From IMG/VR virus record IMGVR_UViG_3300045988_054045: 64,000 nt of DNA; one strand, given 5' to 3'. Each line of letters begins with the position of its first letter. Position 1 is the stretch's first letter. A program made the translations under genes and the position numbers. The stretch comes from a virus. The notes under the pieces are model-generated. The model made no database searches. It was not told the DNA's origin and saw only the letters and a list, made by a program, of their open reading frames with translations. This document shows, one piece after another, positions 7,185 to 49,356 of this stretch.

Positions 7185-7188
7185 GTAA

Positions 7189-8285: not shown

Positions 8286-8296
8286 AATTGTTTGAA

Positions 8297-9617: not shown

Positions 9618-9618
9618 C

Positions 9619-10155
9619 ATGAAGAACTTTCCAATATTAGACGAAAATGGCAAGGAATGGTGGATAAGCCGTTCTATTGCAGTAACTGGATGTATATTTA
9701 CATTTCTGAATGGTAAGTGGTGTGTATTAGCCAATAAAAGAGGTGAGGGCACACCTGACTTTCAGGGAATGTGGAATATGCCCTGTGGTTATTTGGACTT
9801 CAATGAAACTACGGCTGAAGCAGTAATAAGAGAAGTCTATGAAGAAACTGGAGTTAAAGTCAATCCTGATTATCTTCATTTCTGGTGTTTCAATGATTCT
9901 CCAACTCAAAACAGGCAGAATGTATCCTTTAGGTATTATGCCTTAGTCGATGCACAGCCTGGAAATATTAGTGTCGGAACTGGTAATGATAGAGGTGGAG
10001 AAGAGGATGAAGTAGAAGCTATAGGATGGATTCCAGTAGATACCGTTGATAATTATAAGTGGGCATTTGGTCACGATGAAATTATCAAGGACTTTGTGGA
10101 ATGGATGCACCTGGAAGATGACTATTTTGATGACATTGACCAGGACTCAGAATGA
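9619..10155 (+). CDS. Nudix hydrolase
   Basis: GYLDFNETTAEAVIREVYEETGV is a perfect Nudix box (Gx5Ex7REUxEExGU). The start is set at ATG 9619, 1 nt after the upstream TAA. The track start at 9586 would overlap the upstream gene. Confidence 0.85.
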   Translation: MKNFPILDENGKEWWISRSIAVTGCIFTFLNGKWCVLANKRGEGTPDFQGMWNMPCGYLDFNETTAEAVIREVYEETGVKVNPDYLHFWCFNDSPTQNRQNVSFRYYALVDAQPGNISVGTGNDRGGEEDEVEAIGWIPVDTVDNYKWAFGHDEIIKDFVEWMHLEDDYFDDIDQDSE

Positions 10156-12151: not shown

Positions 12152-12466
12152 ATGAAAATCGAAGAGAAATTTAGAAAATTCCAGCAAGGTGGTGCTGCAC
12201 CTCAACCTGGTGCTGAACCAGCAGGCGGAGCACCAGCAGAAGGAGCACCTGCTGAGGGTGGTGCGCCTGCTGAAGGGGGACAAGACCCAATGGCACAGAT
12301 TCTACAAGTAGCTGCACAAGCAGTTCAGACTCAGAATTGTGAGGCTGCAATGGCTGTATGTCAAGCTCTAATGCAAATCGCTCAAGGTGGTGCTGCTCAA
12401 GAACAAGCTCCTCAAGAGGAACCAACTTTTGCAAGAAAAGGTGCTAGACTAGTAAGAGTAAGATAA
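12152..12466 (+). CDS. Low-complexity Ala/Pro/Gly/Glu/Gln-rich small protein (104 aa); candidate virion cargo or internal protein
   Basis: The N-terminus is MKIEEKFRKFQQGG. Degenerate GAPAEG-type repeats follow, then a Gln/Ala-rich helix-like part and a basic tail ARKGARLVRVR. The gene has its own promoter and terminator. It is locally GC-rich in an AT-rich genome. Confidence 0.6.
   Translation: MKIEEKFRKFQQGGAAPQPGAEPAGGAPAEGAPAEGGAPAEGGQDPMAQILQVAAQAVQTQNCEAAMAVCQALMQIAQGGAAQEQAPQEEPTFARKGARLVRVR
12188..12289 (+). repeat. Degenerate in-frame tandem repeat encoding (G)GAPAEG-like units
   Basis: The peptide is GGAAPQPGAEPAGGAPAEGAPAEGGAPAEGGQDP. The DNA shows repeated gcacc(a/t)gc(a/t)ga(a/g)gg units. 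Confidence 0.6.
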
Positions 12467-12485
12467 TTAGTCAACAAGGTAAGAA

Positions 12486-12516
12486 GGGGCGTATATTAAT
12501 TATATGCTCCTTTTTT
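12486..12516 (+). terminator. Intrinsic terminator after the 104-aa gene
   Basis: GGGGCGTATA (12486-12495) pairs with TATATGCTCC (12501-12510) to form a 10-bp stem that includes two G-U pairs, with loop TTAAT. TTTTTT follows at 12511-12516. Confidence 0.55.
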
Positions 12517-12530
12517 ATTATACATAGTAT

Positions 12531-15500
12531 ATGTCACAAGTAATAAGAAAGTACAACTCTGGAGGTCAAACTGACAAACCTAAGCTTCTGAGTATAAAAG
12601 GGCTAGGCGACTTTAACCAAGATGACCTAATAAAGAGAGGTTATAGAGATGTGGATGAATATACCTCATCTAAGGGGTTAAAGAATGCTGCTGCAGCTGA
12701 TTTTAGGAATGCTGTGCAATATATGCTTGAGGGAATGAACAATGGCACTATAACTATGGATGCTATGGGCAACTTTCAAGATGCAACGGGTCAAAAATCA
12801 AGTACTGGTGAGTTAGATAGAAAGAAATTCTTGGGTATAAAAACAGGGGTTAAGAATACTGAGAATAATGCCTATGGATTAGCTGCTGATTATCTATACA
12901 ACATCATTAAAGGAGCACCGCAGTATAAGCAGCCTGAGGTAAAGGCTGAGAAATTTAACACCAATGACTATCTAACTAAGGAGATTTCAAAAAGATGGTA
13001 TGGAGGAAACAATATAGATTTTGGCAACTGGTTTAAAAACAGGTCAGAGAAAGACCGTAATGCACTCATAGCTGACATCTTTAATAGTGCGGATTATAAT
13101 AAATTGTATCAAGAGCACGATTGGACCGATACTGGTATCAATAGCGTAGAAGACTTAATGGCTCGTGGAAGGGCATTTGGCTCTGCTATTTCTAATAATA
13201 AACTAGACAATGACGATTACAACACATTTGCCACACTAGGTGGTAGTGATTTAGATAAGTTCTTGAGGGAAGCCTCAGTAGAGACTGAGTCTACTCCAGA
13301 ACAGAGTAAAATGAAGGCGTGGGAAGCTGAGGCAGAAGCAGCTGGAGCAACCACTCCTGAAGCTAAGGCTGCATTCATTCAAAGAAAGCAGCGAGAAGAA
13401 GCTGACAGAAATGAAGCTATTATTAAGGCTAACCAACAAGAAATATACGAGAGGGAGAGAAATAAATTCTTCAACGATTATGCTACTCGGAATCCATTTA
13501 AGGAATCCATTCAGTCAGGATATGTCCCTAGCTCTGTATCATATAAACCAGAAGACTATGATAAACCAATAAAGGACTTCTATAATAATAATATTGACCA
13601 ATACTTAAACGATAACCTATCTAGAGATTGGTTTAGAGCTGGTAATACCCAACATATTGCCAATCACATGGATTATCTAATTAATCACTTGAAGATGAGT
13701 CTTCCAGACGCAGGTGATGGGTTTGTGGCAATTCCTTCAACGTTTGATTATAATAACTACACTACAATGGTATATAATCCAACTACTAGACAATATAGAG
13801 AATCATCTATGCTAGTGAATGATGCCTTAAGACGTCTTGCAAATGCTCATTATGATAGTACTCGTACATCTAAGAAGGAAAATGGTGGTGTACTCTATAT
13901 GCAGTTTGGAGGAACGTATAGTGCTGGGGCTAATTACAGTAGCTACCAACAACAGAGAGCACAAGAGAAGAAAACCAAAGAAGAGGAAACCGTTAGACAG
14001 AAAGCTGAATCTAAAGGAAGGACTACTGAGGAGCAGAAGGTAGCTGATAGAAAGCCTGGAAGCATCACTAGTGGTGACTGGACTGGGGCTGATTATACTA
14101 GACTAGCATCTATAGTTGCTGATATTGGTTCTTTGGGTGCAGCATATGTGCCTGTCTATGGTACTGCTGCTTCAGCAGTGTTGGGTGTAGGTAGTTCTCT
14201 AGCCAATTATGGAGCGGATGTGTCTGAGAATGGATTTAAATGGGGTGACTTAGGTAGCTTGGCTATGAACTTAGGCTTAGATACAGTGGGTCTGATTCCA
14301 GGATTGGGAACAGCCGCGAAGGGTAGTAAGATGCTTAAAACAGCTGTTAAGTATATACCTAAAACATTGTCCCTATTAGCTGCATATAACTACACGGGTC
14401 CAGCCATAGAATCCATGAAAAAGGCTATGACACCAGGTGCTGACTTAACAGTGGATGACTGGAGAAATATTGCAGAAGGTTTTAAGATGGTGTTACAAGG
14501 AGGTAAGGGTGTCAAGAGAACTGTTCAAGCTCGTAATCTCAAAAAAGACCTAGCAACAGGTAATAAAGTGCTTACTACGCTAGGTGGTAAAGAAGTATCT
14601 GTAACCCCAGCTCAGTTATCTGAGATACGTTCTCATAGAAAATTGGAAGACCAAGAAGCAGCACTGCAACTGTTACTGAAAGATGATAATTTGAGACTAG
14701 CTGGGGACTTAAATAAAAGGTGGTTTAACCCTTCTCGCTATCTTCCTGATTCCAATATCAGAAATGAGTATGATTTTAACAAGAAAGTGAAGAAGAGAAC
14801 CTCTCAAGGATGGATAGAAGTACCTAGAGTCTATAGTAACTCTGATAAATACATCGCTGCTACTATGCAGCAGAACGTTGCTAAGATTCCAGGTGTTGAT
14901 GAGCTATCAATGAAGTATAATGATTGGAAGTACAGGGTAGAAAAGAGTCCAAAAAGTAATAAGGGTAAAAAGCCAAGCTCACAAAAGGAAGCTCCTAAGG
15001 AAATGCTAGCTTTACCAGCCCCAGGTCAAACACATAGAGTATTTCACATGGGTTCTGGACAACCTAAGGTACCTCAAGATGTAACAAATCCATCTAACCT
15101 TAGTAAACCAGGAACATATCAGGATAGAGCTGTCCATGTAGGAGGTACTCCAGTTGAGTCTCCAAATGCTAATGCAGTAAGGACAGTTAGGACTATAAAT
15201 TCTATTTTAGAGCCATTCGTTCCTAAGACTACAAACTTGCCAGCTGTCATCCCTGCATCTAGAAATGCTAACAAGGTAGTTGCTTCACAAACTATACAAC
15301 CTTCACAGAGGTTAGACCAGTTTATTGAAGGGCAAATACCAGGAGGAAGGCAGTTTGGTAAACAAAGAGCTAAAACTGAGAGGGAATATAGAGATGTATT
15401 CCATCCTGTAGCAGAACGTGAGTATAATGCAGTTTGGGATGAAGCAGTTAGAAATAGGAAGGACTTTGGATATGAAGAAGTCTTCCCTAAGAGAAGTCCT

Positions 15501-17249
15501 TATGCTCCTCCTACTCCTACAGAGGTATATGTAGTACCAGAAGGTGCTATGAAAGACCCTAATGCAAGGTATCTTTGGGAACTTATAAACAAGAAACCTA
15601 ATACTAACCATACTAAGAGGGCAGACTTACCTCATAAGAAGTCAAATAAAAAGAAGAAAACTTCTAAAGATGATAGAGTTACTAAGAAAGCAGAGGGCGG
15701 ATTAATTCAATTCTTACAAGGTGGTGATACAGTAGGAAGAATCAAGGCTAAAGATATGTCTAACTGGAATAGAGCATCTGCTCTGGCTAACTATGATTGG
15801 GTAGCTGATATTGATAGGTGGAAAGCTTCACATACTGGACCAGATGATTGGCGTTCTTCTTATATGCTCTCTTTTAATGGCGGAGAAGATATATATGACC
15901 AATTAACTGATAAGACTGGAGATTACTTCGGTGGTAAGTATAATTACTCAGTACAAGACCCATTAGCTAAACAAAGACAAATTACCTTTAGAGGAACTAA
16001 TCAAGGCTTTGATGACCTAATTAGAAATGGTATCGTAGGCTATGGTACTACAGAAGGTACAACTGGATTTGACGTGTATGCTGGTGATAGAACTGGTAAC
16101 AGAACGCTTGCCCGTGGAATGACTCCCGAAGACGTTGCTCGCTTTAATAAGCAATTAGCAACCAGAGGAATGGAGTTATATGACAAGGGTAATGGAACCT
16201 ATCGACTAAGAGCACTTCAGGAACCGACTCAACACCTAGACGAGGTTGTAGTTACAGCTCCTAAAGTAGCAGCTAGTGATACAACTAACCCATCTGGTAT
16301 AAAGCGTGTAACAAGTACTCCTAAGAAGAAGCTTAAACTTAATGTAGCTCCAGAGGAAGTATTAGCTTTAGGTAGAATGGTTGGTGGTTTGGCAGCTAAC
16401 AACAGGGCAGCTAAAGTATATAAGGAAGGACTAAAGCCAACCTTATTAGATACATTTGAGAATACTGTTCCACTTCAAGGTAATTTCCAAGCTAAGACCA
16501 ATGCAGAGCAACAAGCAGGTAATTTAGAATCTGTAGCTGCAAGACCTAGAACTTCTGATGCTTCACTACAGTTAGCTGGAGAGTTAGAGGCTAGTGATAG
16601 AGCAGGACAAGCTAGATTCCAAGGTGGTCTTCAAGATGCTGAAATGTTCTATAAAACTAGGATGTTAGGACAACAAGAATCTGATGCTGCTAAGGCAAGA
16701 AGAGTAGAGGTTGCTAACAGGAATAGAGCTTCAATGAATGCTATAGATGCAGCTAAGAAGCAGATTGATGCTGGAAGAATAACTGCTAATTATCAGCAAG
16801 TTATTGCTCCTTATTTAGCTGGTGTAGAGAATAGATTCAGACAAGCTAGAGGTATGAAGAATCAGTTAGCTTTAGAGTCTTATCTAAACAGAGTTGGTTC
16901 AGAATACGATACTGAATTAGCTAAGATTGGAGAGACTTACAAGAATGACCCAGTAGGGGCACAAAGAGAAATATCTAAATTACGCTCCAAGTATCAGTCA
17001 GATGCACTGAAAGAAAGAACATCACTGATAGATACTCCCTGGTTAGTTAGATTTAGTGGAAAGGGTTCTAAGCTGTCCTATGCTGAAAAAGCTATGCTTC
17101 AAAGGGCTAAGGATTTCAATAAGAGACTATCAGATGATAATAAACAATTTCATAAAGATATAATGGAATCTAAGAGGGAGCATAACAAGATGATTGCAAA
17201 TATGTCTGCTCTCACTGCTGCACTTATAAAGAAAGGAATGCAACTATGA
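12531..17249 (+). CDS. Giant protein (1572 aa); candidate ejected or internal virion (cargo) protein with a Gly-zipper hydrophobic region and a coiled-coil-like C-terminal part
   Basis: Uninterrupted 4.7-kb ORF with N-terminus MSQVIRKYNSGG. Internal KKENGGVLYMQFGG (aa 448-461) and KKAEGGLIQFLQGG (aa 1052-1065) are present. A Gly/Ala-rich hydrophobic stretch, ASIVADIGSLGAAYVPVYGTAASAVLGVGS...GLIPGLGTAAKG, is also present. No enzymatic motif recognised. Confidence 0.6.
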   Translation: MSQVIRKYNSGGQTDKPKLLSIKGLGDFNQDDLIKRGYRDVDEYTSSKGLKNAAAADFRNAVQYMLEGMNNGTITMDAMGNFQDATGQKSSTGELDRKKFLGIKTGVKNTENNAYGLAADYLYNIIKGAPQYKQPEVKAEKFNTNDYLTKEISKRWYGGNNIDFGNWFKNRSEKDRNALIADIFNSADYNKLYQEHDWTDTGINSVEDLMARGRAFGSAISNNKLDNDDYNTFATLGGSDLDKFLREASVETESTPEQSKMKAWEAEAEAAGATTPEAKAAFIQRKQREEADRNEAIIKANQQEIYERERNKFFNDYATRNPFKESIQSGYVPSSVSYKPEDYDKPIKDFYNNNIDQYLNDNLSRDWFRAGNTQHIANHMDYLINHLKMSLPDAGDGFVAIPSTFDYNNYTTMVYNPTTRQYRESSMLVNDALRRLANAHYDSTRTSKKENGGVLYMQFGGTYSAGANYSSYQQQRAQEKKTKEEETVRQKAESKGRTTEEQKVADRKPGSITSGDWTGADYTRLASIVADIGSLGAAYVPVYGTAASAVLGVGSSLANYGADVSENGFKWGDLGSLAMNLGLDTVGLIPGLGTAAKGSKMLKTAVKYIPKTLSLLAAYNYTGPAIESMKKAMTPGADLTVDDWRNIAEGFKMVLQGGKGVKRTVQARNLKKDLATGNKVLTTLGGKEVSVTPAQLSEIRSHRKLEDQEAALQLLLKDDNLRLAGDLNKRWFNPSRYLPDSNIRNEYDFNKKVKKRTSQGWIEVPRVYSNSDKYIAATMQQNVAKIPGVDELSMKYNDWKYRVEKSPKSNKGKKPSSQKEAPKEMLALPAPGQTHRVFHMGSGQPKVPQDVTNPSNLSKPGTYQDRAVHVGGTPVESPNANAVRTVRTINSILEPFVPKTTNLPAVIPASRNANKVVASQTIQPSQRLDQFIEGQIPGGRQFGKQRAKTEREYRDVFHPVAEREYNAVWDEAVRNRKDFGYEEVFPKRSPYAPPTPTEVYVVPEGAMKDPNARYLWELINKKPNTNHTKRADLPHKKSNKKKKTSKDDRVTKKAEGGLIQFLQGGDTVGRIKAKDMSNWNRASALANYDWVADIDRWKASHTGPDDWRSSYMLSFNGGEDIYDQLTDKTGDYFGGKYNYSVQDPLAKQRQITFRGTNQGFDDLIRNGIVGYGTTEGTTGFDVYAGDRTGNRTLARGMTPEDVARFNKQLATRGMELYDKGNGTYRLRALQEPTQHLDEVVVTAPKVAASDTTNPSGIKRVTSTPKKKLKLNVAPEEVLALGRMVGGLAANNRAAKVYKEGLKPTLLDTFENTVPLQGNFQAKTNAEQQAGNLESVAARPRTSDASLQLAGELEASDRAGQARFQGGLQDAEMFYKTRMLGQQESDAAKARRVEVANRNRASMNAIDAAKKQIDAGRITANYQQVIAPYLAGVENRFRQARGMKNQLALESYLNRVGSEYDTELAKIGETYKNDPVGAQREISKLRSKYQSDALKERTSLIDTPWLVRFSGKGSKLSYAEKAMLQRAKDFNKRLSDDNKQFHKDIMESKREHNKMIANMSALTAALIKKGMQL

Positions 17250-19084
17250 AATTAATTGATAAGCTACAACAAGGCGGGGGTATGCCCGCCTTTGTTAGCT
17301 ACACTAATGTACCCCAACCTCAAGTAGCTGCTCCCTATTCACCTGCAACAACTAGTAAGGAGGAATCAGACGGTTCTGTTGGGCTACTAGACAAGAATAT
17401 GGTAAAATTTTTATATGAGAATGGTATACCTAGTGATGTTGAAGCATTTATAGAAACTTCAGGTATATTCTCAGATAATATATATAAAAACCCCTTTAAG
17501 AAGGAAGATGCCACCGTCCAATATAAGACAATATTGAAAATGCTTCCTAGAATAAAGGCAGAAAATGAAAGATTTAAAAGTGCTATGACACAGGCGGACA
17601 AAAATGGTGGACTTGGAGAAATTGCAGTGACTGACGGTGGTCATGTAATTACGGTTAATGCTGAAGGCAAGTTACAGAAGAAGTCATTAAATGATGTAGA
17701 CCTCAATTCTGAACAAATATTAACTAATTCTGAGTTAGCTAACTATCGTGCCAATAGTGTTAGTGCAGCCTTTAATACTGACCTAACAAGTATTATAAAT
17801 AATGCTATAGGTGTTCCTAAAATCACCGAGTATATACAGTCAGTAATTAATAAGCTGGGAACTACCTCTATGTCCAGAGAGGGGTATGTAGGGCAGCAAT
17901 CTGGAAAAATATTGAAAGGTATAGAGTATCTAACTGCTTTGCAGCCAAGTAGGGAAGACCTATCTGGAATGTCAGTAGATGGTCTTTATAAGATGTCTAG
18001 CTTAGACAAGTCCCAGCAGGCTCAAGCTAATCAAGCATTAGGCTACTTGTTAGCTTCCTTGCCAAGAAATATGAGGACGGTTTTACAAGCTAAGGCAGCT
18101 ATGTACTTAGGAGATAATTCTGGAGAAGGGGTTAAGAAATTGTTGATGTCCTTAACTCAATCAGCATTGAGTGGGGAACATACTATAAAACTAGACCTAC
18201 AAGAGAAAATGGATGCTAAGGGGAATACCAAATCATCTGGTAGTAAGGATAACAATATTACAGACCCTGCTAAAGCATTCCTACTGGGATTGGGTGAGAT
18301 TAAGAACCATAAGATTAACAATGGAAATTCTTATAGTTTAAATCTTCCTGGTAATAGTGCCCCAATGGTCGATACATCTGGTAAGACTATAGGAAGTGCT
18401 ACGTTAGAGGATGCTGCAAGGAGTACATTCTCTGGAGTATTAGATTTTAAGAATGCTACAATGGGAGGACAGTTATTAAACTCTTCACAAAGGAGTAGGG
18501 TAGCTATAGATGGCTCAAATGTGGTGGCTGTAGACCTACCTATTGACGTAGAGGCGTTACAGTCTGGAGTTCTTAAACCTGATATAGATTCTTTAAAGAG
18601 ATTAGAATTAGCTGAAAATGAGATTAGAGAGGGAGATATAAAGGACGAAGCTCAGAAAAATGAGATTTATGCTAAGTATAAATTGCCTTACAAATATGTA
18701 AATGGTCAAATTAATACTTCTGCTTACGGAAGATTTGCTATATTAGACGCATCAGCTGATGAATCTGCATTTGCGGAAGACCCAACAATGGATGATACAC
18801 TTAGTGAGGTTACTGACATTAATGAAAGAGAAAGTATAGAAAGAATACTAAAAGCTGCTGATGCATCATTTAAGATGAGTCAGCCAGGTCTATTCTCCAG
18901 TGGTAACAACGTATATTCTGGTTCAGTTTATATTCCTGTGAGACAGAATCTTATTAATGCCTCTCTTGGCTCTGGTCATTATCCAACAATGCAGGGTAAT
19001 GATGCTATGGATATAGAAGCTAAGGAGCAACAAAAGCAAAAGTTACAAACCTATGTGCCAAGTCCTTCTCTATCTACACTATAA
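17246..19084 (+). CDS. Hypothetical protein (612 aa); candidate virion cargo protein
   Basis: ATGA overlap with the upstream giant ORF. The N-terminus MKLIDKLQQGGGMP shares the K-x-Q-x-G-G motif. No enzymatic motif recognised. Confidence 0.55.
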   Translation: MKLIDKLQQGGGMPAFVSYTNVPQPQVAAPYSPATTSKEESDGSVGLLDKNMVKFLYENGIPSDVEAFIETSGIFSDNIYKNPFKKEDATVQYKTILKMLPRIKAENERFKSAMTQADKNGGLGEIAVTDGGHVITVNAEGKLQKKSLNDVDLNSEQILTNSELANYRANSVSAAFNTDLTSIINNAIGVPKITEYIQSVINKLGTTSMSREGYVGQQSGKILKGIEYLTALQPSREDLSGMSVDGLYKMSSLDKSQQAQANQALGYLLASLPRNMRTVLQAKAAMYLGDNSGEGVKKLLMSLTQSALSGEHTIKLDLQEKMDAKGNTKSSGSKDNNITDPAKAFLLGLGEIKNHKINNGNSYSLNLPGNSAPMVDTSGKTIGSATLEDAARSTFSGVLDFKNATMGGQLLNSSQRSRVAIDGSNVVAVDLPIDVEALQSGVLKPDIDSLKRLELAENEIREGDIKDEAQKNEIYAKYKLPYKYVNGQINTSAYGRFAILDASADESAFAEDPTMDDTLSEVTDINERESIERILKAADASFKMSQPGLFSSGNNVYSGSVYIPVRQNLINASLGSGHYPTMQGNDAMDIEAKEQQKQKLQTYVPSPSLSTL

Positions 19085-36465: not shown

Positions 36466-37551
36466 ATGGCAGTATGTCTTAATAAAAATTCAGTAGAGTA
36501 CCAGACATTGTTGAAGATGTCTGGTCTCTCTGAATTTAAATTTAATGCTTTTACATCTACATTTGTAGATAAATTTGGTAGGTATCCAGAACTCGATGAG
36601 ATACCTGGGGCTGACTCTAGACCTTATCTGAATAACTCTTTGTCAGTCAAAACAATAGATGATACGAGTTTCGTAAAGAATGATAAGATATTTTCTCAAA
36701 CTGGCACAACAGATGTCAAAGAGGCTAATATTAGGATAAATAACACGTATCGAGACTTGGAGGTTAAGCTAACCCCTTCTAGTGAGGTGTCTACGATACA
36801 AGTTAGGAAACGCCCAAATAAATGGGACAATGTATATGAGGGGGGAATAATTATTGATGACTCCACATCTTCCTCTAGGAATGTTGGAGTTTTTAATAGT
36901 ATATTAGAGAAATTAGCAAACCTCTATGGTATTAATTTTATTAGCATTACTAACGGGGAACTATCCTCAGAACAATGGAAGGGAGTCGTAGATGATGCTA
37001 AAACAACTAACGCTTTCGTCTACAATGGTAATATATACATTAATATAGATAATTCTAGCATTGATGCTCCATTGCACGAAATGTTACACCTATTCTTGGG
37101 TTCAGTTAGGTACAGTGACCCTCAACTATATTTTTCAATGGTGGAGGCTATGAATGAATTACCTAACAAAGCACTATTGGCTAGAAATTATAAGGACAGA
37201 ACAGATTCTGACATAAATGAGGAATTGTTGGTGTTGGAGTTTTCAAAATATGTAACTGGACAAGATAGTATTATTAGTAAGTTGCCAGTTAATGTGCTAC
37301 ATAAAACATTCTACAATATGGGTAGAGTGTTAGACTCTATCTTATTTGGAGAGCAGAGTATAGCTACTATGGACACAAAGAGTCTATTCAACTCCTCTTT
37401 AGTAAAACTGTCTGAATATCTAGGTTCTGCACTAACTAATAATCAATATTCAGGAACCTTTAATGTTAAGTCAGCTGAGGTTCACAGAGTATTAGCTAAC
37501 GTTAAATCAGATTTAATGAAGAATAAAGACCTAAAAGAATTTTGTGGATAA
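36466..37551 (+). CDS. Putative zincin-type metallopeptidase (361 aa)
   Basis: There is a single HExxH, in APLHEMLHLFLGS (H204-H208, nt 37075-37089), in a hydrophobic helix context. The gene lies 1 nt after the RNAP gene and overlaps the next gene (TAATG). Confidence 0.4.
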   Translation: MAVCLNKNSVEYQTLLKMSGLSEFKFNAFTSTFVDKFGRYPELDEIPGADSRPYLNNSLSVKTIDDTSFVKNDKIFSQTGTTDVKEANIRINNTYRDLEVKLTPSSEVSTIQVRKRPNKWDNVYEGGIIIDDSTSSSRNVGVFNSILEKLANLYGINFISITNGELSSEQWKGVVDDAKTTNAFVYNGNIYINIDNSSIDAPLHEMLHLFLGSVRYSDPQLYFSMVEAMNELPNKALLARNYKDRTDSDINEELLVLEFSKYVTGQDSIISKLPVNVLHKTFYNMGRVLDSILFGEQSIATMDTKSLFNSSLVKLSEYLGSALTNNQYSGTFNVKSAEVHRVLANVKSDLMKNKDLKEFCG

Positions 37552-42852: not shown

Positions 42853-43416
42853 TTAATCCTTCTTTTCTACATATTCAGGTTCTCTTTCGTCCTGTTGCTT
42901 TAGATAAGTAAACATCTTCTTACCTAATGCTTTGTAATCTTTATCTTCTTTAGATTTAGAAGCTCTCTTAGCCATTCTAATTAATGTTCTCGTATTCTTT
43001 CTACTAAAGATTCTCTCCCCACCTTCTAATTCCATTTGAGTAGAACCATCAGGTGCAATTACCTTCATCTTAGGTAATTCCTCGTCCTCTTCAATATCGA
43101 GTTCATCTCCCTCTTCGATTCCAGAGCCTTGATTAACCTCTAATACAAACTTAACATTATCTTCTTCAGCTATATTCTCATTCTCAGGTTCTCCCTGATA
43201 TACTGATATTACTTCCATATCTTCACTAATAAAGATAATATCTAAAGGAACTTTAGTATCTTTCATCCAAAATCCTACAGTCTGAGGTCCTTCGAAGAAG
43301 AATAGCATACCCTCATCATCTTTTAGTTCTGTGACTCCCTGTAATCCCTTGATTCTTTCCTCCTCAGTCCTAGCACAAGTCACATTATATTCCTTGTCTC
43401 CTATTTCAATTTTCAT
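42853..43416 (-). CDS. DUF192-domain protein with an acidic linker and a basic C-terminal extension
   Basis: CARTEEERIKGLQGVTELKDDEGMLFFFEGPQTVGFWMKDTKVPLDIIFISED matches the DUF192 pattern A.T..ER..GLM....L....GMLF.f.....fWMknT..pLDiiF. The extra 80 aa, ...EEDEELPKMKVIAPDGSTQMELEGGERIF..., lies outside the domain. Confidence 0.65.
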   Translation of the reverse strand: MKIEIGDKEYNVTCARTEEERIKGLQGVTELKDDEGMLFFFEGPQTVGFWMKDTKVPLDIIFISEDMEVISVYQGEPENENIAEEDNVKFVLEVNQGSGIEEGDELDIEEDEELPKMKVIAPDGSTQMELEGGERIFSRKNTRTLIRMAKRASKSKEDKDYKALGKKMFTYLKQQDEREPEYVEKKD

Positions 43417-44672
43417 TACTCAACTGTCTTTAATAATCCTGTGTTATCAACTGTATTCTCTAGAATCTCGTGTACAAGTAACTTACCTGCTTCAATAGCA
43501 GCCTCATCGGAACCATCTTGCATTAACTTTTCTAATTGCTTAGTAACATCAAGATTAAAGATGATTTCTTCTCTTTCTACCTCAGCGTGTTGCTTTATAT
43601 CACCACCCTTTTCCTCAGTAATAACTGGAATACCTTTAGTAGTTACTTCCTCAAACTTTCCATCTACATCCTCTAAATGGTGTTTATGAGCGTGCAATGC
43701 TCCGTCTGGTATTACATTAACAGCTCCACCATTTTTGAAGCCAGCCACCTCTTCCATTCTAACTTCCTCTTGGATTTTCTTAGCTTTGCTTTTCTTTCCA
43801 TTGGATAACTTAATTACCCTCTTAGCAAACTCTCTATCCATTTTAAGTCCAGATTTACCAGCTCTTACAGCACTTTGCTGATAACCTCCATTTAGTTGAA
43901 GCTGAGTGCCCAATCCTATTAGTGGATTGTTAGAAGCAGTAAATGCCATCTGTGCTTCATCAGCTATGTTACTCATTTTTGACTGCTGCATTTGGGCATT
44001 ATGTATTTGCTGGTTAGCCTTGTTTCTAGCTTTCCCACTAAGTAGACCATACTTCTTTCCACTCTTGGTAAGAGCATCATCTACTGTGGCTTGAGTTCCT
44101 CCATATGATGAACCTACCTGTTCAAATGCTTCATTATCTTTAGTAATAGTATCTGCCTTTTTAGCTCCTATTGCATTTACTAATCCCAGAGGAGTCAGTT
44201 TAAGGAACTTGCTGTCCAATATCTTATCTGCTGTAGTCATTTGGTCAGTACCAACTCCCAAAGCTGTTAATCCATCAGATAGCATACCACCTACCTTCAT
44301 AGCACCACCAATAATAGTACCAACTCCAGGAATAGCCATTGCAGCGTTAGCAGCAGCATCATAACCTTGATTTAGACCTTCTGTAAGAGCTGATTGCTCT
44401 GTCTTTGGAATTAAACTTCCAGCTACGTCAGCTATACTTCCCGCAATACCAAACCCCTTATTAAGATTAGCTTTCTTTGTGTATGCTCTCTGTATCTTAG
44501 AGGCTTGATTCTGGTTCCATTGTTTTACACTATCTGGAAGCTCTAGGGTAGTGGGAAATGAAGGAGTCTGAATCATAGATGTAAGACTAGCAGGTTGAGG
44601 TAAAGGAGGAGTTAGATTACTCCCCCCTGTTAATACCCCTGAATTTTGATATTTCTGTATACGTTTACGCAT
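43416..44672 (-). CDS. Gly-zipper cargo or ejection-like virion protein (418 aa)
   Basis: The N-terminus is MRKRIQKYQNSG. GSIADVAGSLIP...AIPGVGTIIGGAMKVGGML is paralogous to a segment of the 1572-aa protein. The C-terminus carries FKNGGAVNVIPDGALHAHKHH. The gene is the second-to-last of the virion module, directly after the largest tail protein. Confidence 0.5.
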   Translation of the reverse strand: MRKRIQKYQNSGVLTGGSNLTPPLPQPASLTSMIQTPSFPTTLELPDSVKQWNQNQASKIQRAYTKKANLNKGFGIAGSIADVAGSLIPKTEQSALTEGLNQGYDAAANAAMAIPGVGTIIGGAMKVGGMLSDGLTALGVGTDQMTTADKILDSKFLKLTPLGLVNAIGAKKADTITKDNEAFEQVGSSYGGTQATVDDALTKSGKKYGLLSGKARNKANQQIHNAQMQQSKMSNIADEAQMAFTASNNPLIGLGTQLQLNGGYQQSAVRAGKSGLKMDREFAKRVIKLSNGKKSKAKKIQEEVRMEEVAGFKNGGAVNVIPDGALHAHKHHLEDVDGKFEEVTTKGIPVITEEKGGDIKQHAEVEREEIIFNLDVTKQLEKLMQDGSDEAAIEAGKLLVHEILENTVDNTGLLKTVE

Positions 44673-47600
44673 AACTTACAATATATAATGTTTTTAAAGC
44701 TGTTATTATAGCTAACTCATCACCAGTATACCTCACCTTAATCTTTACATATTTATCCCTAATTCTAGTTTCTTTCCTTTCATTAGACCATTTATTAACA
44801 TCTAATGACAAGAAATTAGCACTATAACCTCGGTCTCTTAATTCAGATGGAATATCAGAATCACTAGTAATGTTAAGAGCAGTCATACTCTCTGGTAATG
44901 GATTATTAACTAGGTTAAGAGGGGGATAAGTATTACCATCCTTATCTTTAACAGTCCAAGCTAATTCATTCTTAGCCCAGTAAGTTATAGAAGGAATTTG
45001 AATATCCCATTTATCCTCTAGGTAGTCCATGTTACCATTTATTCTACCATATTCCATAACCTCATACCATTTACCATTTTGAACTAGTACATTTGTATAT
45101 CCAGCTGATACAAGTGAGCTATATCTATCTTGAGTTATCTCTTGTAAATATCTCTTCTTAAAAGGACATGCTTTGATATGAGTAGCTATCTTAAATTCAT
45201 TTAGTTGTTTATCATGCACAATTTCTGAACCAGATATGTATTGATAGTCTCTACCTGCTGAGGTTACAGACTGATAGTGGTCTTCAATCTCATTCAGACT
45301 ATCTACCCTTGAATAGAATAGTGGGAACATAATTGACATATCTTTATACTTAGTAGTACTGTATAATATGTCTCTTTGTTCGGGTATAATATCCAAATAG
45401 TCGTGATTATAAACTATATCTGCACCATTGTATTGGTATAGATGTTTAGTAGCCTCTTGCCTAAAATAAGCATTCCTTTTATCGTTGGCAAAGTTATATA
45501 CTTCTCCGACAACTTCAAAATGGAAGGATTCAGGTTGAGTCTTATTGCTTATAATCTGCAGATTATTGAAGATTTTATGTACAGATGGATTATCAACCAC
45601 AATAAATTCAAACTCAAACGGATGTTGCTTTCCATACCAGTAGCAAGAACTAATAGGTTTCTTAGTAGTCATTAGTCCAGCTTGACCATGTTTCCAGAAT
45701 GAAGTAGTAAGTAAATCATATCTCATCTTAGTAACTACAGTTACATTAGAATACAATGTTTTTACTATGTTCTTAACTTCACCTTCAACTAAGTCAGTTC
45801 CCTGATTATAAACAACAGCTTTAATAGGTATTGTCCATCTACTATCTCCTACAGAGTTAGCATTAACAGATACTTGATTACCATTGGTAATAAAGAACTT
45901 GTTTCTAACCCTATCATCAGCAATGCTATATTCAATACTAGAACCACTAATATCTAGATTTAATTGAAGATTTCCCAGTTTTGCCTTACCGTCTACAACT
46001 GTTAGTACATTATCAACTATTGCCCCTCCTTGCATACCAATAAGAGGATAGTTAGAAGTTAGCTTAGTAATAGTCTTAGATGTATCTCTGTCAAAACTAA
46101 AGAATATATTATCAATATTTTCAGAATATGATGGCACCCATGAGTAGAATGTAACAAACTTTTGCATAACTTCATTATAACATAAGTTCCAAACATTCTC
46201 TTCTAATGTATTAATATCATCATAGAACGTGAACATTACATCCTGCTTAAACCTGTTATAATGTGTTTTTACGTTCCTAATACCAATAATAGGAGTCTTT
46301 TCCTTCTCCGTAAGCGAGATATTATCATTTAAGAACTTCTGTACCTTAAAATCTGAGATAACTTCAAAGGTCTGTCCATTAGTTCTCCAAATCTTCTTCC
46401 CAACGGTATCCACTCCATAAACGTAATAGGGAGTTTTTATGACACTTTCACCCCACTGAGTACCGAATGTATCACTGAGCATTTTTGGATTCTCTGGCAG
46501 CACGTTAGAGGTGTTTATGAAGATATTTCCGCCTGCACCTTCCCCTGCAACGGCTCTTTCATTGACTGGTATCAAAGCAACACCATGTTCAAATACGCAG
46601 ATAATGTTACCAAACCATTCAACTAGCTTTACAATACTACCATAGGTTAGAGGATAATCCCTATAATGAGTTAATTTAAATACTCTATATCCATTTTTAA
46701 ATGAATCATTTACATTAATGTCAGAGTACATAACTCTAATATGGAATTTATTCTTAATAGCTGGAACATTAGGTAGTTCATAATAATACTTATCAGATGT
46801 TGTGCTGTTAATACCAGCATTTGTAACAAATGATTCAGGTATTTTTGATTCTCCAGTTACTGACATGGCTTGCAATGGATAGAACCCTCTAGCTTTACCA
46901 GTAAGCCCCAATTCAGAAGTATAAGACATATCAATGCTTCTCATGGATAAATTAACATTGCTACATACTTTTATAGTAACCCAGTGTCCCATCTTAATAG
47001 CATTAACATCACCTCTATTGATTTTACCATTTTTCTCACTATCTCCAATAGTATAATTGTCTTTCCACGACATTTGGTCTACAATATCATCATTGATAGG
47101 AGCTGATGAGTCCTGGAAGTTCCTACACATTCTGTGTGTATAGTTACCTATATAACAATCACCTCTAAATAGGTTTTTAGCTATCATAGTATTCTCATCT
47201 TCATCCAAATCATCCCACAACATTCTGTTACAGATTGCATAGAAAGCAGAGGAATCCTCATATCTGATTTCGAAGTACGTGTCTAACAGGTTCTCCTCAT
47301 AGTTAGGAATTTTAATATCAATAAGACTCATCTTATTAGTATTATAACCCTCTAAGCCTATATAGGGTCCCCAACTACCTCTTAATAGATTCCTTGCATT
47401 AGAAGACTTATTAGTGTAGTTGTAGTAAGAAACTCTCCATGCTTCTTCTGCTTCTCCAGCTCTGGCACTAAATAGTTGTTTCTTACCCTTTAATGCCTTA
47501 ACATTATCACCAATAGCCATAATGTTATATGTTTCATCTTGGGTAGAATCATTAGTAGTATATGACAGATTGTAGAAATGTGTACCACTTCTATCAAAGT

Positions 47601-49356
47601 ACTTCTTACTAAACTGAGATTTAGCCATCTTAACCTCAAACTGAGTACCAGTAAACAGCTGATTAAAATAAGACTGTCTTAATTCAAATTCTGGACATAG
47701 AGCTGCATATCCTTCTAATACATTATCCTTTTCGATGTCTTCACACCTTCTATCAAAGTCATGTGTTAGAACTCCATCATTGTCCAAGAATCTCTCTACC
47801 CTATACTTATCATTTCCAGATGGAAGAACTGGTAAATGACTTGTGTTCTCTAATCCTATGGTTACAGCTTGGGCTAGTGTAGTAGGGATTCTCTTTTGTC
47901 TTACAAAGAAGAATCCTTTAGTATATCTCTTCAATTCTCTAACAGCGTCCTTACTGATTTTAATGTCAAATCCGATAGGAATTGTACCACTCTCAGCTAA
48001 TTGATTACCGTTATACTTAATTTTGATTACACCCTTAGAATTCTCATTCTGACTGTCTAACTTACTTGTCTCCTTATTGATAGGAATATATTCCCTATTT
48101 GCTTGGATAACAGCTATATTAGTAGTACTATTGGGGTCAAATCCTTCCTTAAACAAAGGATAGTCTTCCCAGGGTATTCTATCTGGGTCTCCAGGTACAG
48201 TTAATCTGCTAACACCTCTAATGTTGAATACTGGAGATAATGTATAATCATTAAGGATATATACTACCCCTAGCCTATATATTTCATCATTCCAGTATCC
48301 TAACCTATTATAGATGTTCATCACATTATAATACTCATACTGTCCTGATTCATCCTTATAGTCCTTATCTACCCTACCTATGTTATTCTCTACATTCAAT
48401 TCAGGTAGAAAATGCAGAGATAGGTCAGTAAGCTCCTTATATTCAATATCTGGATTAGCTACATTACCTAAGAATAACATATTCTGACAAGTAGTTTGTG
48501 CAGCTGCACTATTAACTACATTGTAAGCTACATTAATATCGTTGATACTAACTGCCTGAACTGTTTCAAATCCAGTAATACTAATCTTAGCTACATTGTT
48601 ATATACAGCAAACTGTTTCATAATCTTGAATGAAGTAGTCATTTCATTTCCATCAATATCTGATGTACTCCTTGTATAATAGACTACTACATTATTATAA
48701 GATGAATCTATATTAGTTAACAAGAATGAAGCTGATTTATAACTGTTCTCATCTCTAATTCCACCTTGTATAGAGGATGGGTCATTCAAATTACCAACAT
48801 GGCAAGTTACTATGCCTGACTCAGCTATAAAATCTGTCTCATTCCCATCTGAATCTGATAACTTAAAGTAAAACACATAATTACCAACTCTTAAATTACC
48901 ACTGGTATTCAATCCCATAAATGTAAGATTGGCTATGTTATTAGTTTTCTTATAAAGAGATATATCAGACTCAAAGGAATCTATATCGTATATATTGGTG
49001 TCATTATCTCCTTCTCTGTCTACAATCTGATAAGTATTCATACCTGTAGATGAGAATCTTGTGTTTATTAGCTTAGGATAGTTACTTCCATCATTAAGGA
49101 TAAGATTTACCGAACCATCATAAGATTGCTGCGTTACAATATCAATAGGATGGTTTAGGTCGAAGCTAAGTAATTCTGTATCTAAGTTAATTAAACTACC
49201 CTTTGGATACAGAATTACTCCATCTTCTACTATATCTTCATTAGTTCTGAGTACTCTTAAAGGATTATACTCATACACTAAAGCTCCTTTTTGTTGAAGT
49301 TGATTCAATCCTAAGTCAAGGTCTAATACCTTACCACTTAGTGATTTGAAATTCAT
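44665..49356 (-). CDS. Very large virion or tail structural protein (1563 aa)
   Basis: Uninterrupted 4.7-kb ORF inside the structural module. Its composition is beta-rich and Asn/Tyr/Ser-rich, which is typical of tail hub or muzzle-type proteins. No enzymatic motif recognised. The function is inferred from position only. Confidence 0.5.
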   Translation of the reverse strand: MNFKSLSGKVLDLDLGLNQLQQKGALVYEYNPLRVLRTNEDIVEDGVILYPKGSLINLDTELLSFDLNHPIDIVTQQSYDGSVNLILNDGSNYPKLINTRFSSTGMNTYQIVDREGDNDTNIYDIDSFESDISLYKKTNNIANLTFMGLNTSGNLRVGNYVFYFKLSDSDGNETDFIAESGIVTCHVGNLNDPSSIQGGIRDENSYKSASFLLTNIDSSYNNVVVYYTRSTSDIDGNEMTTSFKIMKQFAVYNNVAKISITGFETVQAVSINDINVAYNVVNSAAAQTTCQNMLFLGNVANPDIEYKELTDLSLHFLPELNVENNIGRVDKDYKDESGQYEYYNVMNIYNRLGYWNDEIYRLGVVYILNDYTLSPVFNIRGVSRLTVPGDPDRIPWEDYPLFKEGFDPNSTTNIAVIQANREYIPINKETSKLDSQNENSKGVIKIKYNGNQLAESGTIPIGFDIKISKDAVRELKRYTKGFFFVRQKRIPTTLAQAVTIGLENTSHLPVLPSGNDKYRVERFLDNDGVLTHDFDRRCEDIEKDNVLEGYAALCPEFELRQSYFNQLFTGTQFEVKMAKSQFSKKYFDRSGTHFYNLSYTTNDSTQDETYNIMAIGDNVKALKGKKQLFSARAGEAEEAWRVSYYNYTNKSSNARNLLRGSWGPYIGLEGYNTNKMSLIDIKIPNYEENLLDTYFEIRYEDSSAFYAICNRMLWDDLDEDENTMIAKNLFRGDCYIGNYTHRMCRNFQDSSAPINDDIVDQMSWKDNYTIGDSEKNGKINRGDVNAIKMGHWVTIKVCSNVNLSMRSIDMSYTSELGLTGKARGFYPLQAMSVTGESKIPESFVTNAGINSTTSDKYYYELPNVPAIKNKFHIRVMYSDINVNDSFKNGYRVFKLTHYRDYPLTYGSIVKLVEWFGNIICVFEHGVALIPVNERAVAGEGAGGNIFINTSNVLPENPKMLSDTFGTQWGESVIKTPYYVYGVDTVGKKIWRTNGQTFEVISDFKVQKFLNDNISLTEKEKTPIIGIRNVKTHYNRFKQDVMFTFYDDINTLEENVWNLCYNEVMQKFVTFYSWVPSYSENIDNIFFSFDRDTSKTITKLTSNYPLIGMQGGAIVDNVLTVVDGKAKLGNLQLNLDISGSSIEYSIADDRVRNKFFITNGNQVSVNANSVGDSRWTIPIKAVVYNQGTDLVEGEVKNIVKTLYSNVTVVTKMRYDLLTTSFWKHGQAGLMTTKKPISSCYWYGKQHPFEFEFIVVDNPSVHKIFNNLQIISNKTQPESFHFEVVGEVYNFANDKRNAYFRQEATKHLYQYNGADIVYNHDYLDIIPEQRDILYSTTKYKDMSIMFPLFYSRVDSLNEIEDHYQSVTSAGRDYQYISGSEIVHDKQLNEFKIATHIKACPFKKRYLQEITQDRYSSLVSAGYTNVLVQNGKWYEVMEYGRINGNMDYLEDKWDIQIPSITYWAKNELAWTVKDKDGNTYPPLNLVNNPLPESMTALNITSDSDIPSELRDRGYSANFLSLDVNKWSNERKETRIRDKYVKIKVRYTGDELAIITALKTLYIVSYA

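Follow-up and report, generated by a model that had tools for sequence, protein, structure and literature searches.

Four proteins encoded on both strands of a 64,000-nucleotide stretch of viral DNA (the window) begin with the same short peptide, and it is placed there non-randomly. Across four to six unrelated families the tag is conserved as protein; it is confined to the late block of virion and cargo genes and leads into a disordered tether. We tentatively read it as a docking or address handle, presented on a Pro-rich tether, for the virion-internal (cargo/ejection) proteins of this crassvirus lineage. A search of the 47 predicted proteins of the window (21,096 residues) for K-[FYL]-[QN]-x-[GS]-G returns exactly four hits, in p104, p1572, p612 and p418 (Table 1), and six-frame translation of all 64 kb again returns exactly four matches, always these same N-termini. 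Every match lies at residues 6-14, as the preliminary description had reported with N-termini and coordinates that proved exact throughout, and each tagged protein starts at the first ATG, a few codons past an in-frame stop. Composition predicts 0.25 matches in the whole proteome and about 0.007 in the first 12 residues of the 47 proteins; with all four found at N-termini, chance is rejected as the origin of the shared tag, although this pattern was defined post hoc, after the data had been seen, and independent replicates carry more weight.

Such replicates are provided by two full relatives and 80 related IMG/VR loci, in which the tag is conserved on the p418, p104, p1572 and p612 families and not on their neighbors. 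A relaxed core scanned against MT835470 (110 non-nested ORFs, 38,179 residues) gives nine matches: six at N-termini, two in the interior of tagged proteins and a single one in another place; in the 80 loci, many of them near-duplicates, 135 of 160 matches fall within the first 15 residues. The scan of related phages that had been suggested from the window alone thus reproduces the N-terminal bias. Across the same 80 loci the tag is absent from the neighboring families p187, p2690, p1563, p1037, p1569 and p361, and a check of 19 further window proteins from the virion, cargo and giant-protein blocks, about 14,000 residues in all, finds no copy of the motif. The giant proteins p2690, p3097 and p1569, which presumably form the RNA polymerase block, lack the tag, so it is not the sole route into the particle; nor is it indispensable in every member of a tagged family, since roughly one in two representatives of the p418 family begins differently and the MT835492 homolog of p1572 has none of it. 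Two further tagged families are found in relatives, outside the window: a 600-1000-residue protein with a glucosaminidase domain (a peptidoglycan hydrolase), which bears a variant of the tag, and a very basic 275-residue protein adjoining the terminase genes. Both fit a virion-internal role.

The N-terminal form is about 12-14 residues long, with tags ranging from 9 to 15, and consists of the initiating Met, a basic two-turn amphipathic stretch that follows the consensus [KR]-[IV]-[KR]-K-[FYMWL]-Q-x-G-G, with hydrophobic residues at -5 and -8 relative to GG, and two glycines at which the helix terminates and a flexible Pro/Ala/Gln-rich tether begins. The basic upstream pattern is conserved in unrelated families, and over the 25 residues past the tag Pro is enriched 3.8-fold and P/G/A/Q/S/T make up 53% of positions versus 33% in the background. 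AlphaFold2 models of p418 and p104 show a short helix followed by a low-confidence linker; in p104, modeled from a single sequence, the predicted helix spans residues 3-12 and ends at Gly-Gly. Homologs of p418 start with MRKRIKRYQWGG, MHKIRKFQFGG or MYKKIKKFKLGG, those of p1572 with MSQAIRKYQTGG, MAQAIRKFQGGG or MSQAIKKLSNGG, and those of p612 with MEIINKIQKLQGGG, MNLKPVVKMQSGGG or MNLKIQKFAEGG; the tag is better conserved than the proteins it heads, the remainder of the p612 homologs being only 22-31% identical. To judge from the codons used, selection acts on the tag as protein rather than RNA: among 34 distinct DNA versions, all four Gly codons occur at both G positions, the basic residue is encoded by AAA, AAG, AGA or CGA, and the Gln by CAA, CAG or, in some relatives, a recoded TAG. 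An RNA- or DNA-level signal is rejected because every synonymous codon is in use, a recombination signal because 15 nt of non-conserved DNA are too short, and a secretion signal peptide because the tag has no hydrophobic core.

Beyond what the preliminary description had noted, the motif also occurs internally and C-terminally, many related proteins carry it, and the giants of the presumed RNA polymerase block do not. The core (F/Y)-(K/Q)-x-G-G recurs at module junctions inside proteins at the cargo-1 position and at the C-terminus of p104; the internal copies are acidic (EFKEGG) whereas the N-terminal ones are basic, and their number varies among homologs. In p418, which is laid out as tag, Pro-rich stretch, conserved Gly-rich, moderately hydrophobic helical core and conserved C-terminal segment, the glycines of the internal copy (G315 and G316) are invariant in 30 homologs, and homologs carry this copy at module junctions. 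The single internal copy in p1572 is MQFGG at residue 457. The small p104 comprises the tag, an Ala/Pro/Glu/Gly-rich linker, a two-Cys helical hairpin, a second linker and a C-terminal hairpin; according to the family alignment it has the motif at both ends, the C-terminal copy reading PVY(K/R)KGGKLV in homologs and being predicted by AlphaFold2 to form a β-hairpin with G-A/G-G at the turn.

Table 1. Tagged proteins, copies of the motif and neighboring genes discussed in the text
Feature	Coordinates	Strand	Remarks
p104, 104 aa	12152..12466	+	starts MKIEEKFRKFQQGG
N-terminal tag of p104	12152..12193	+	MKIEEKFRKFQQGG; conserved in 14 distinct homolog N-termini
C-terminal motif copy of p104	12422..12463	+	degenerate PTFARKGARLVRVR; family alignment, translation checked
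p1572, 1572 aa, large cargo-block protein	12531..17249	+	starts MSQVIRKYNSGG
N-terminal tag of p1572	12531..12566	+	MSQVIRKYNSGG
p612, 612 aa, cargo-block protein	17246..19084	+	starts MKLIDKLQQGGG; conserved segment MPAFVSYTNVPQP after tag
N-terminal tag of p612	17246..17281	+	MKLIDKLQQGGG
p361, candidate zincin-type protease, cargo/RNA polymerase block	36466..37551	+	invariant HExxH (HEMLH, nt 37075-37089)
DUF192 protein p187	42853..43416	-	Pfam DUF192, E = 4e-25; between p418 and p104 in all relatives; untagged
p418, 418 aa, cargo-protein-1 position, directly after muzzle gene	43416..44672	-	synteny
Internal core copy of p418, FKNGG, residues 312-316	43725..43739	-	directly before conserved segment VNVIPDGALHAHKHH
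N-terminal tag of p418	44637..44672	-	MRKRIQKYQNSG
Crassvirus muzzle protein p1563	44665..49356	-	Pfam PF25731 crAss_MUZ; untagged

Judged by its genes, the window belongs to a large gut crAss-like phage (Crassvirales). The muzzle protein p1563 matches crAss_MUZ with E = 3.5e-28 (98.7 bits, cut-off 27; the match to crAss_MUZ_C is weak), a tblastn search aligns the capsid protein at 21-26% identity with the annotated major head proteins of 15 'cr' phage records, and phmmer finds a homolog of crAss001 gp43, annotated as a tail tubular protein. The phage is probably a zeta-group crassvirus, a placement inferred from three features: contigs of roughly 185-190 kb, a block inversion and the mixed recoding of TAG and TGA. 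Some two thirds of its genome extend beyond the window. The relatives are colinear (capsid, ring proteins, muzzle, cargo, giant proteins), and their tagged genes stand in a row immediately after the muzzle gene. The corresponding block of crAss001 encodes the cargo proteins C1 and C2 and the virion RNA polymerase subunits (PMC10172136), and this synteny suggests that the tagged proteins are carried in the virion. The idea that the motif marks a virion-internal, ejected set of proteins, first advanced from the sequence of the window, gains from the position of the tagged genes in this block, from their location in a TAG-recoded relative within the late, recoded virion block, and from the tag variant on the peptidoglycan hydrolase of relatives; in the recoded phage, MT835492, in-frame TAG is found at 20-54 per 1000 codons in most virion and cargo-block ORFs and is almost absent from early genes. 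The intervening p187 may, by position, be a partner of the tag; our literature search found nothing on the function of DUF192.

Position is also where the likeness of p418 to a known cargo protein ends. Its gene directly follows that for the muzzle, as does crAss001 gp45, and no similarity of p418 to gp45 is detected by sequence, profile or fold: Pfam gives no match at E <= 0.01 and does not find the portal-binding crAss_CARG1 domain (PF25725), PDB searches by phmmer and by profiles, including one of the C-terminal segment, do not find gp45, hhalign of p418 against gp45 returns a probability of 0.4%, phmmer of the crAss001 proteins against the window finds no gp45-p418 similarity, and Foldseek detects no gp45 fold similarity with a p418 model that is confident only at residues about 95-260. 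The family itself is large (1285 representative homologs at the 50% clustering level), a word-indexed search with p418 finds near-identical copies only, indicating an abundant phage, and megablast with this region yields no match in the phage collection. None of the four tagged proteins has a Pfam or PHROG match; p612 does not match PF25712 (crAss_CARGO2), which crAss001 gp46 matches with E = 6e-219, and p1572 shares 40-55% identity with its syntenic counterpart in MT835470.

Docking itself, the receptor and any part the tag plays in packaging or in the order of ejection are our inferences, as follows. The handle would bind a common site inside the particle, for which the portal, the tail-barrel ring proteins, the muzzle and the adjacent DUF192 protein are candidates; unrelated proteins made late in infection would thereby be brought to the same place, with their N-termini kept poised for N-terminus-first exit through the tail. 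The (F/Y)-(K/Q)-x-G-G copies before internal modules and before a short basic C-terminal tail could give large modular cargo several attachment points, and the 104-residue protein, with the motif at both ends, could serve as a two-ended strap. Features typical of tethered linear motifs, namely the Pro-rich tether, the short helix, the two-ended p104 and the variable number of internal copies, suggest such a handle. On the other side, the acidic internal and the basic N-terminal copies may have no common partner, and the C-terminal copy of p104, modeled as a simple β-hairpin turn, would fit a purely structural element.

Short N-terminal peptides common to unrelated cargo have a precedent in phage T4, whose internal proteins IPI-III and Alt carry a capsid-targeting sequence (CTS) that attaches to the scaffolding core and that the prohead protease gp21 cuts off at (L/I)-x-E. 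Like the CTS, which marks proteins packed into the head and injected, the tag is a peptide of about 10 residues shared by unrelated proteins; unlike the CTS, it ends in Q-x-G-G and its motif is also internal and C-terminal. For the ejection sets of podoviruses we know of no shared short N-terminal peptide. Those proteins (P22 gp7/gp16/gp20, T7 gp14/15/16 and N4 gp50/51/52) resemble the tagged ones in being internal sets near the portal that are expelled before the DNA and in their modular, beads-on-a-string architecture with flexible linkers (PMC13434306). Closer to home, crAss001 has an unassigned 14-residue helical segment bound in six copies to the muzzle, a short helical peptide in the tail lumen, and N-terminus-first exit has been proposed for its C1, gp45 (PMC10172136). 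An aromatic-x-GG stands at or just before both resolved segments of gp45 (209/210 before 214-245, and 426-428 at the start of 425-552); its N-terminus, MAKKKIKRRGKMPPNIFDTGG, resembles the tag loosely. We found no published description of a Gly-Gly or N-terminal motif in crass phages.

The motif could instead be a generic structural joint with no specific partner, a helix cap or tight Gly-Gly β-turn that bounds the folding modules of mosaic proteins, its N-terminal copies being remnants left where a modular gene was split just upstream of a junction. We regard this as unlikely. In its favor, 60 p418-family representatives contain 141 copies of the core versus 25 expected; these typically separate inserted modules and immediately precede the conserved C-terminal segment, and some are partial tandem duplications (e.g., GGSINVIP...EYKEGGSINVIPEG). 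A module that in MT835470 follows ...SFKAGG-IIKYQEPAQP as part of a fusion is encoded in other genomes by a gene of its own, starting MKLIPKYKNPAQP; the hairpin turn predicted at the end of p104 agrees. Against the joint, an N-terminal copy lacks any upstream module that it could cap and continues into a disordered Pro-rich linker and not a second strand, and the N-terminal form has its own conserved basic pattern upstream in unrelated families. The 19 further window proteins examined that lack the motif, moreover, also contain many turns and junctions.

The double glycine also invites comparison with protease sites. Adenain and ASFV pS273R cut at (M/I/L)-x-G-G|x with a small P1' residue, and the double-glycine leaders processed by C39/PCAT peptidases are 15-30 residues long, with hydrophobic residues at -4, -7 and -12 and Glu at -8, and sit on small secreted peptides. 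The tag shares with the former a Gly-Gly end, a hydrophobic residue a few positions upstream and a place at boundaries in large virion proteins, and with the latter a short N-terminal peptide ending in GG; it departs from the leaders in length, in hydrophobic spacing (-5/-8) and in the size of the proteins it heads (104-1572 residues). An adenovirus/ASFV-like maturation site had been proposed in the preliminary description, and we consider it improbable that an N-terminal peptide of 11-14 residues is removed and modular cargo cut at internal copies, whether by a phage protease (p361, with its HExxH, or the zincin domain of crassvirus virion proteins) or by a host enzyme. The short core does end in GG in either upstream context, basic or acidic, and at module boundaries; p361, encoded in the same block, has an invariant HExxH and a downstream D..EE; and cleavage has been proposed for the virion RNA polymerase module proteins of crAss phages, which are fused in some phages and one of which has a zincin-like protease domain (bioRxiv 10.1101/2020.03.07.982082), in agreement with the annotation of p-crAssphage gp45. 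Against these points, the residue after GG in 77 distinct tags is highly variable (G, T, I, A, P, V, Q, K, E, F and others), with Pro, which most endopeptidases cannot accept at P1', in eight; the hydrophobic residue is at P5, not P4 as in adenain sites; and cutting at internal copies about 25 residues apart would release tiny peptides. In crAss001 gp45, the similar sequence at residues 426-428 lies within a continuously modeled portal-bound domain, 425-552, equivalent to Pfam CARG1 424-555 (PMC10172136), and virion bands of about 150, 270 and over 300 kDa are consistent with unprocessed giant proteins (PMC6235969). As for the enzyme, Pfam, a PDB profile search and hhalign against p-crAssphage gp45 are all negative for p361, leaving HExxH as its one zincin feature; neither a clan CE cysteine protease nor, in Pfam, the prohead protease family was detected among 36 window proteins scanned, and no ORF that fuses two window families, as a polyprotein junction would, occurs in the 80 loci.

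Quite improbable, finally, is action in the host after ejection, with a common peptide that binds something in the host envelope or cytoplasm (peptidoglycan, membrane, chaperone or protease) and lets the ejected proteins assemble or be handled together: the tagged set does include types expected at the envelope (p418, by its core, and the hydrolase of relatives) and the tag is basic and amphipathic, but no known host-binding motif was found to resemble it, the internal copies are acidic, and the data at hand do not separate this from docking inside the particle.

If the tag is a docking handle, its reach could be wider. It is conceivable, albeit doubtful, that the handle is a general label of crassvirus cargo that docks at the tail lumen, the muzzle (as the 14-residue helix of crAss001) or the portal and that loads unrelated proteins, sets their order and readies them for N-terminus-first injection; its cargo would then include envelope-breaching enzymes and straps that hold the RNA polymerase module, and a peptide of 14 residues might serve to bring foreign proteins into the phages that are most abundant in the human gut. 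How about 5 MDa of crassvirus cargo is loaded, ordered in the head and tail, and threaded out before the DNA is called an open question in the structure paper on crAss001 and in the 2026 paper on N4 ejection, and a short conserved peptide common to cargo-block proteins offers a concrete experimental entry to it. In huge recoded gut phage genomes, where almost no protein has a database match, the tag may also serve as a practical annotation marker for virion-internal proteins.

Four proteins of the window (p104, p1572, p612 and p418, named, like the others below, by length in amino acids) begin with the hexapeptide K-[FYL]-[QN]-x-[GS]-G, and their reading frames and N-termini are exactly those of the preliminary description. 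Both in the 21,096 aa of the 47 predicted proteins and in a six-frame translation of the entire window, the pattern has four matches, always at these N-termini. Amino-acid composition predicts 0.25 for the proteome as a whole and 0.007 for residues 1-12, so its N-terminal frequency is above chance. The tighter core [FYLMW]-[KQ]-x-G-G is likewise confined to the tagged four when 23 proteins from the blocks for virion, cargo and giant proteins are compared. Because the hexapeptide was defined post hoc, with the data already seen, its statistical weight rests on independent replicates in relatives.

Coordinates of the tagged genes and of other features of the window
Feature	Coordinates	Strand	Description
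p104	12152-12466	+	N-terminus MKIEEKFRKFQQGG
p1572	12531-17249	+	N-terminus MSQVIRKYNSGG
p612	17246-19084	+	N-terminus MKLIDKLQQGGG
p418	43416-44672	-	N-terminus MRKRIQKYQNSG
p418 C-terminal segment	43416-43739	-	last ~105 residues (alignment A1)
p2690	19096-27168	+	giant protein
p361	36466-37551	+	between the 3097-aa and 1569-aa proteins
HEMLH of p361	37075-37089	+	HExxH motif
p1563	44665-49356	-	muzzle gene
p1037	49358-52471	-	N-terminus MRKEAINTFGEGLIMDLHPL...
Giant-gene block	~12000-42800	+	
Capsid-tail-muzzle-p418-DUF192 block	42853-63994	-	inverted
Early region	754-1665, 6018-10155	+	ThyX and NAD salvage/synthesis set

The related genome MT835470 carries the tag on homologues of all four proteins and MT835492, with TAG read as Gln, on three of four, its p1572 homologue lacking the tag and its p104 homologue starting MEYKFIKKF-Q-EGG, where TAG codes for Gln. 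With the adjacent DUF192 gene as anchor, 80 IMG/VR loci were compared: N-terminal variants recur in the p418, p104, p1572 and p612 families, and no tag stands at any N-terminus of the p187 (DUF192), p2690, muzzle, p1037, p1569 or p361 families. Across all ORFs, called mechanically (first ATG, genetic code by total ORF length), 135 of 160 matches fall within the first 15 residues, in a sample whose loci are often near-duplicates or close relatives of one another. A relaxed core, like all relaxed patterns picked by eye, matches nine times in the whole of MT835470: six times at N-termini, twice inside tagged proteins and once elsewhere. The sharing first described for four window proteins is thereby replicated in MT835470 and in the IMG/VR loci, mostly at N-termini.

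In 34 distinct DNA versions, all four Gly codons are used at each glycine, Lys/Arg is written AAA, AAG, AGA or CGA, and Gln CAA, CAG or recoded TAG; this diversity places the constraint on the peptide. The Lys is mostly preceded by Ile/Val and Arg/Lys, in that order, and the consensus [KR]-[IV]-[KR]-K-[FYMWL]-Q-x-G-G is, as judged from these alignments, selected at the protein level. Since p612 homologues are just 22-31% identical overall, the tag outlasts the proteins that it heads. It is modular and optional: roughly half of the representatives in the p418 family have a different start, and the giant proteins p2690, p3097 and p1569 never carry it (p2690 and p1569 families checked in the 80 loci). 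The 2690-aa family (homologues in L008-L087) has a conserved N-terminus of its own, unrelated to the tag, with the pattern ...NDW(L/F/I)(A/V)....NP.F....F(K/R).(V/I)G(L/I), and p2690 contains a helicase-type AAA_19/AAA_30 P-loop domain near residues 1416-1585.

The motif is wider than the preliminary description had it, reaching more families, internal copies and other crassviruses. Relatives hold two more tagged families, encoded outside the stretch that the window covers. One is a strongly basic protein of 275 aa (MATKFQQGG, MITKLQQGG, MIYKFQQGG), encoded just upstream of putative terminase and portal genes, roles assigned by eye from size and position; the other is a 600-1000-aa protein with a Pfam glucosaminidase domain (MKVIPKLQQGN, MRIKKLQEGN, MRIINNVMKLQSGG). 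Contig L127 joins a protein of the latter type, starting MRITKLQEGN, to a DUF192 gene 99% identical to that of the window. The basic protein of MT835470 contains KCGGKAKRRIKK twice.

Internal copies are richest in the p418 family, for which an exhaustive search returned 1285 representative homologues. The first 60 of these contain 141 copies of the core [FYLMW]-[KQENAD]-x-G-G versus 25 expected after shuffling, about 24 of the 141 being a family-conserved MKVGG/MKGG of the helical core and not junction copies. The internal consensus, (V/I)-x-P-E-F-K-E-G-G-(S/K)-(I/F/V), is found where inserted modules adjoin and just ahead of the conserved C-terminal segment, sometimes at the extreme C-terminus, and some copies are partial tandem duplications; p418 itself has one, FKNGG (residues 312-316). 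Within this family of >1000 clusters, the C-terminal segment (NVIPxGxLH....KGIPV...Q.AE.E..EI.F...T..LE.L......A...AGKLL..E...NT.D) is the most conserved part, has no relative in PDB or Pfam and is tandemly duplicated in some homologues. Intein-like insertions (C...HN) in the homologues P0150 and P0180 interrupt the family's best-conserved motif, GGTDGM|TTTDAILGS, which suggests that this site is functionally critical.

In the crAss001 protein gp45, aromatic-x-GG sites occur at residues 20, 209, 263, 332, 427, 562 and 821, and both segments resolved by cryo-EM (214-245 and 425-552; PMC10172136) start at or just after such sites. Judging from these sequences, the tag is one form of a broader handle, (F/Y)-(K/Q)-x-G-G, that recurs throughout the cargo proteins of crassviruses. 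In Intestiviridae, small membrane proteins have (Y/F)-(K/R)-C-G-G-(K/R)3 at the C-terminus, and those adjoining the muzzle gene also repeat it (for example NVYRCGGH, LFRCGGKKK and AYRCGGRKR, from the set p-crAssphage L162, crAss002 L165 and cr3_1 L166). This, like the KCGGKAKRRIKK of the basic MT835470 protein, may be a Cys-containing variant of the handle. RNA-polymerase-associated zincin proteins of prototypical crAssphage and relatives (MDVLKFLQGGN, MDVLSFLQHGN, MDVLKFLREGN, MDVLNFINNGG, MDIDSIFEAGG) start with a similar-looking mini-motif, but an acidic one.

The lineage is crassviral. Upstream of p418, p1563 is the crassvirus muzzle protein (Pfam crAss_MUZ, E = 3.5e-28), its match being confined to the distal end of the profile, positions 925-1221 of 1224. 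The N-terminus of p1037, encoded upstream of it, resembles that of crAss001 gp44 (…KKEQHFFKGMQRDLSVSKF…), and the muzzle protein may be split into these two genes. With annotated major head proteins of Crassvirales, the 473-aa capsid protein shares 21-26% identity, and with its counterparts in MT835470 and MT835492, both unannotated human-faecal phage records, 86% and 60%. Exact or near-exact copies of p418 occur in many metagenomes, on contigs up to ~190 kb, and TAG or TGA recoding is patchy among relatives (standard/TAG/TGA 74/4/2 in one set of related loci, 46/19/9 in the other); the window also has a block inverted relative to them. Published descriptions of zeta crAss-like phages show the same traits (PMC12386605), and from this match we infer that the window is one. 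Its early region encodes ThyX, an NAD salvage/synthesis set (nicotinate phosphoribosyltransferase, NAD synthase, a cytidylyltransferase-like protein of the NMN/NaMN adenylyltransferase type and a NUDIX hydrolase), an RNA-repair-type HAD domain and a YqeY-like protein.

In MT835470 and MT835492, one strand runs muzzle, p418, p187, p104, p1572, p612, p2690, p3097 and onward; in the window the capsid-tail-muzzle-p418-DUF192 block is the inverted one and converges on the giant-gene block near 42.8 kb. The row of genes in these relatives stands where crAss001 has gp44 (muzzle), gp45 (cargo 1), gp46 (cargo 2) and the proteins of the virion RNA polymerase, every one of which was detected in particles by mass spectrometry (PMC10172136). 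None of the four window proteins matches Pfam or PHROGs; p418 and p612 stand in the gene positions of cargo proteins 1 and 2, but are not assigned to those families, for which they failed Pfam, profile and fold tests. On the minus strand of MT835492, the block with the capsid, tail, tagged and giant genes (late block 63.7-120 kb; L004-L006) has 20-54 in-frame TAG per 1000 codons in the majority of its ORFs and fewer in a few from the capsid region; in the plus-strand early genes (5-63 kb) TAG is essentially absent. In phages, recoded stop codons as a rule go with late, virion and lysis genes (PMC12386605 and references there), which implies that the tagged proteins are made together with the particle.

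The final motif residue lies at position 7-15, most commonly 12 or 14, and over the next 25 residues Pro is enriched 3.8-fold and P/G/A/Q/S/T make up 53% versus a background of 33%. Single-sequence and shallow-alignment models are of limited reliability; with that reserve, AlphaFold2 predicts for p104 (single sequence, mean pLDDT 71) a helix 3-12 ending at the Gly-Gly, then a linker of low confidence, a hairpin of two helices holding both cysteines and a C-terminal beta-hairpin with the turn G-A (G-G in homologues), where the family alignment has a clear second copy, PVY(K/R)KGGKLV. The p418 model (30 homologues) is confident just for the helical core (residues ~95-260), scoring ~40 for the tag and for residues 293-369, which comprise FKNGG and the strongly conserved VNVIPDGALHAHKHH...KGIPV segment; such low scores are usual in segments that fold on a partner.

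Our tentative preference is for a docking or address handle, in which a short amphipathic helix with a Gly-Gly cap and a flexible Pro-rich tether would bring unrelated late proteins to one shared binding site within the particle and perhaps keep their N-termini ready for exit; such binding, its receptor and a part in packaging or ejection are what we infer. This reading is favoured because the tag is strictly N-terminal on unrelated families and limited to the cargo block, a peptidoglycan hydrolase and a basic protein, because its tether is disordered, internal copies vary in number and the 104-aa protein is two-ended, and because crAss001 offers precedents in a muzzle-bound helix of 14 residues, as yet unassigned, and a proposed N-to-C ejection (PMC10172136). 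Against it stand the untagged giant proteins, the contrast between basic N-terminal and acidic internal copies, and the p104 C-terminal copy, which in the model looks like a plain hairpin turn. That the motif is instead a generic structural joint, which we consider possible but doubtful, would explain the internal copies well and the N-terminal ones less so, as these cap nothing and have their own conserved basic context.

Gly-Gly processing, raised in the preliminary description, is unlikely. It would fit a consensus that is limited to the core and lies at module boundaries, the presence of p361 in the same gene block, and the zincin-like domain speculated to cleave crass virion polyproteins (bioRxiv 10.1101/2020.03.07.982082). 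The HExxH of p361 is invariant in 23 homologues, preceded by AF....I..N.D and followed by D..EE; the protein looks like a candidate zincin-type metalloprotease and may be the counterpart of a zincin domain that has been reported for module proteins of the crassvirus virion RNA polymerase. However, p361 is a candidate by this motif, with no support from Pfam, PDB profile search or hhalign; the residue after the Gly-Gly is unconstrained, with Pro in 8 of 77 tags; hydrophobic spacing is unlike that of adenain sites; internal copies come as close as ~25 residues; gp45 site 426-428 falls within a continuously modelled domain; and crAss001 virions show bands of ~150, 270 and >300 kDa (PMC6235969). 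Adenain/ASFV-type sites and double-glycine leaders were rejected as identities of the tag, which lacks their defining consensus. That the tag acts in the host after ejection we regard as still more improbable.

Functionally, the tag comes closest to the T4 capsid targeting sequence, which binds the scaffolding core and is removed by the prohead protease at (L/I)-x-E, neither feature being seen for the crassvirus tag. No description of the motif was found in the searchable literature. The tag is a real, strongly non-random, conserved peptide on cargo-block proteins of an abundant gut crassvirus lineage; it would best be classed with the targeting or docking peptides of virion-internal proteins, and it provides a directly testable entry into the loading and ejection of crassvirus cargo.
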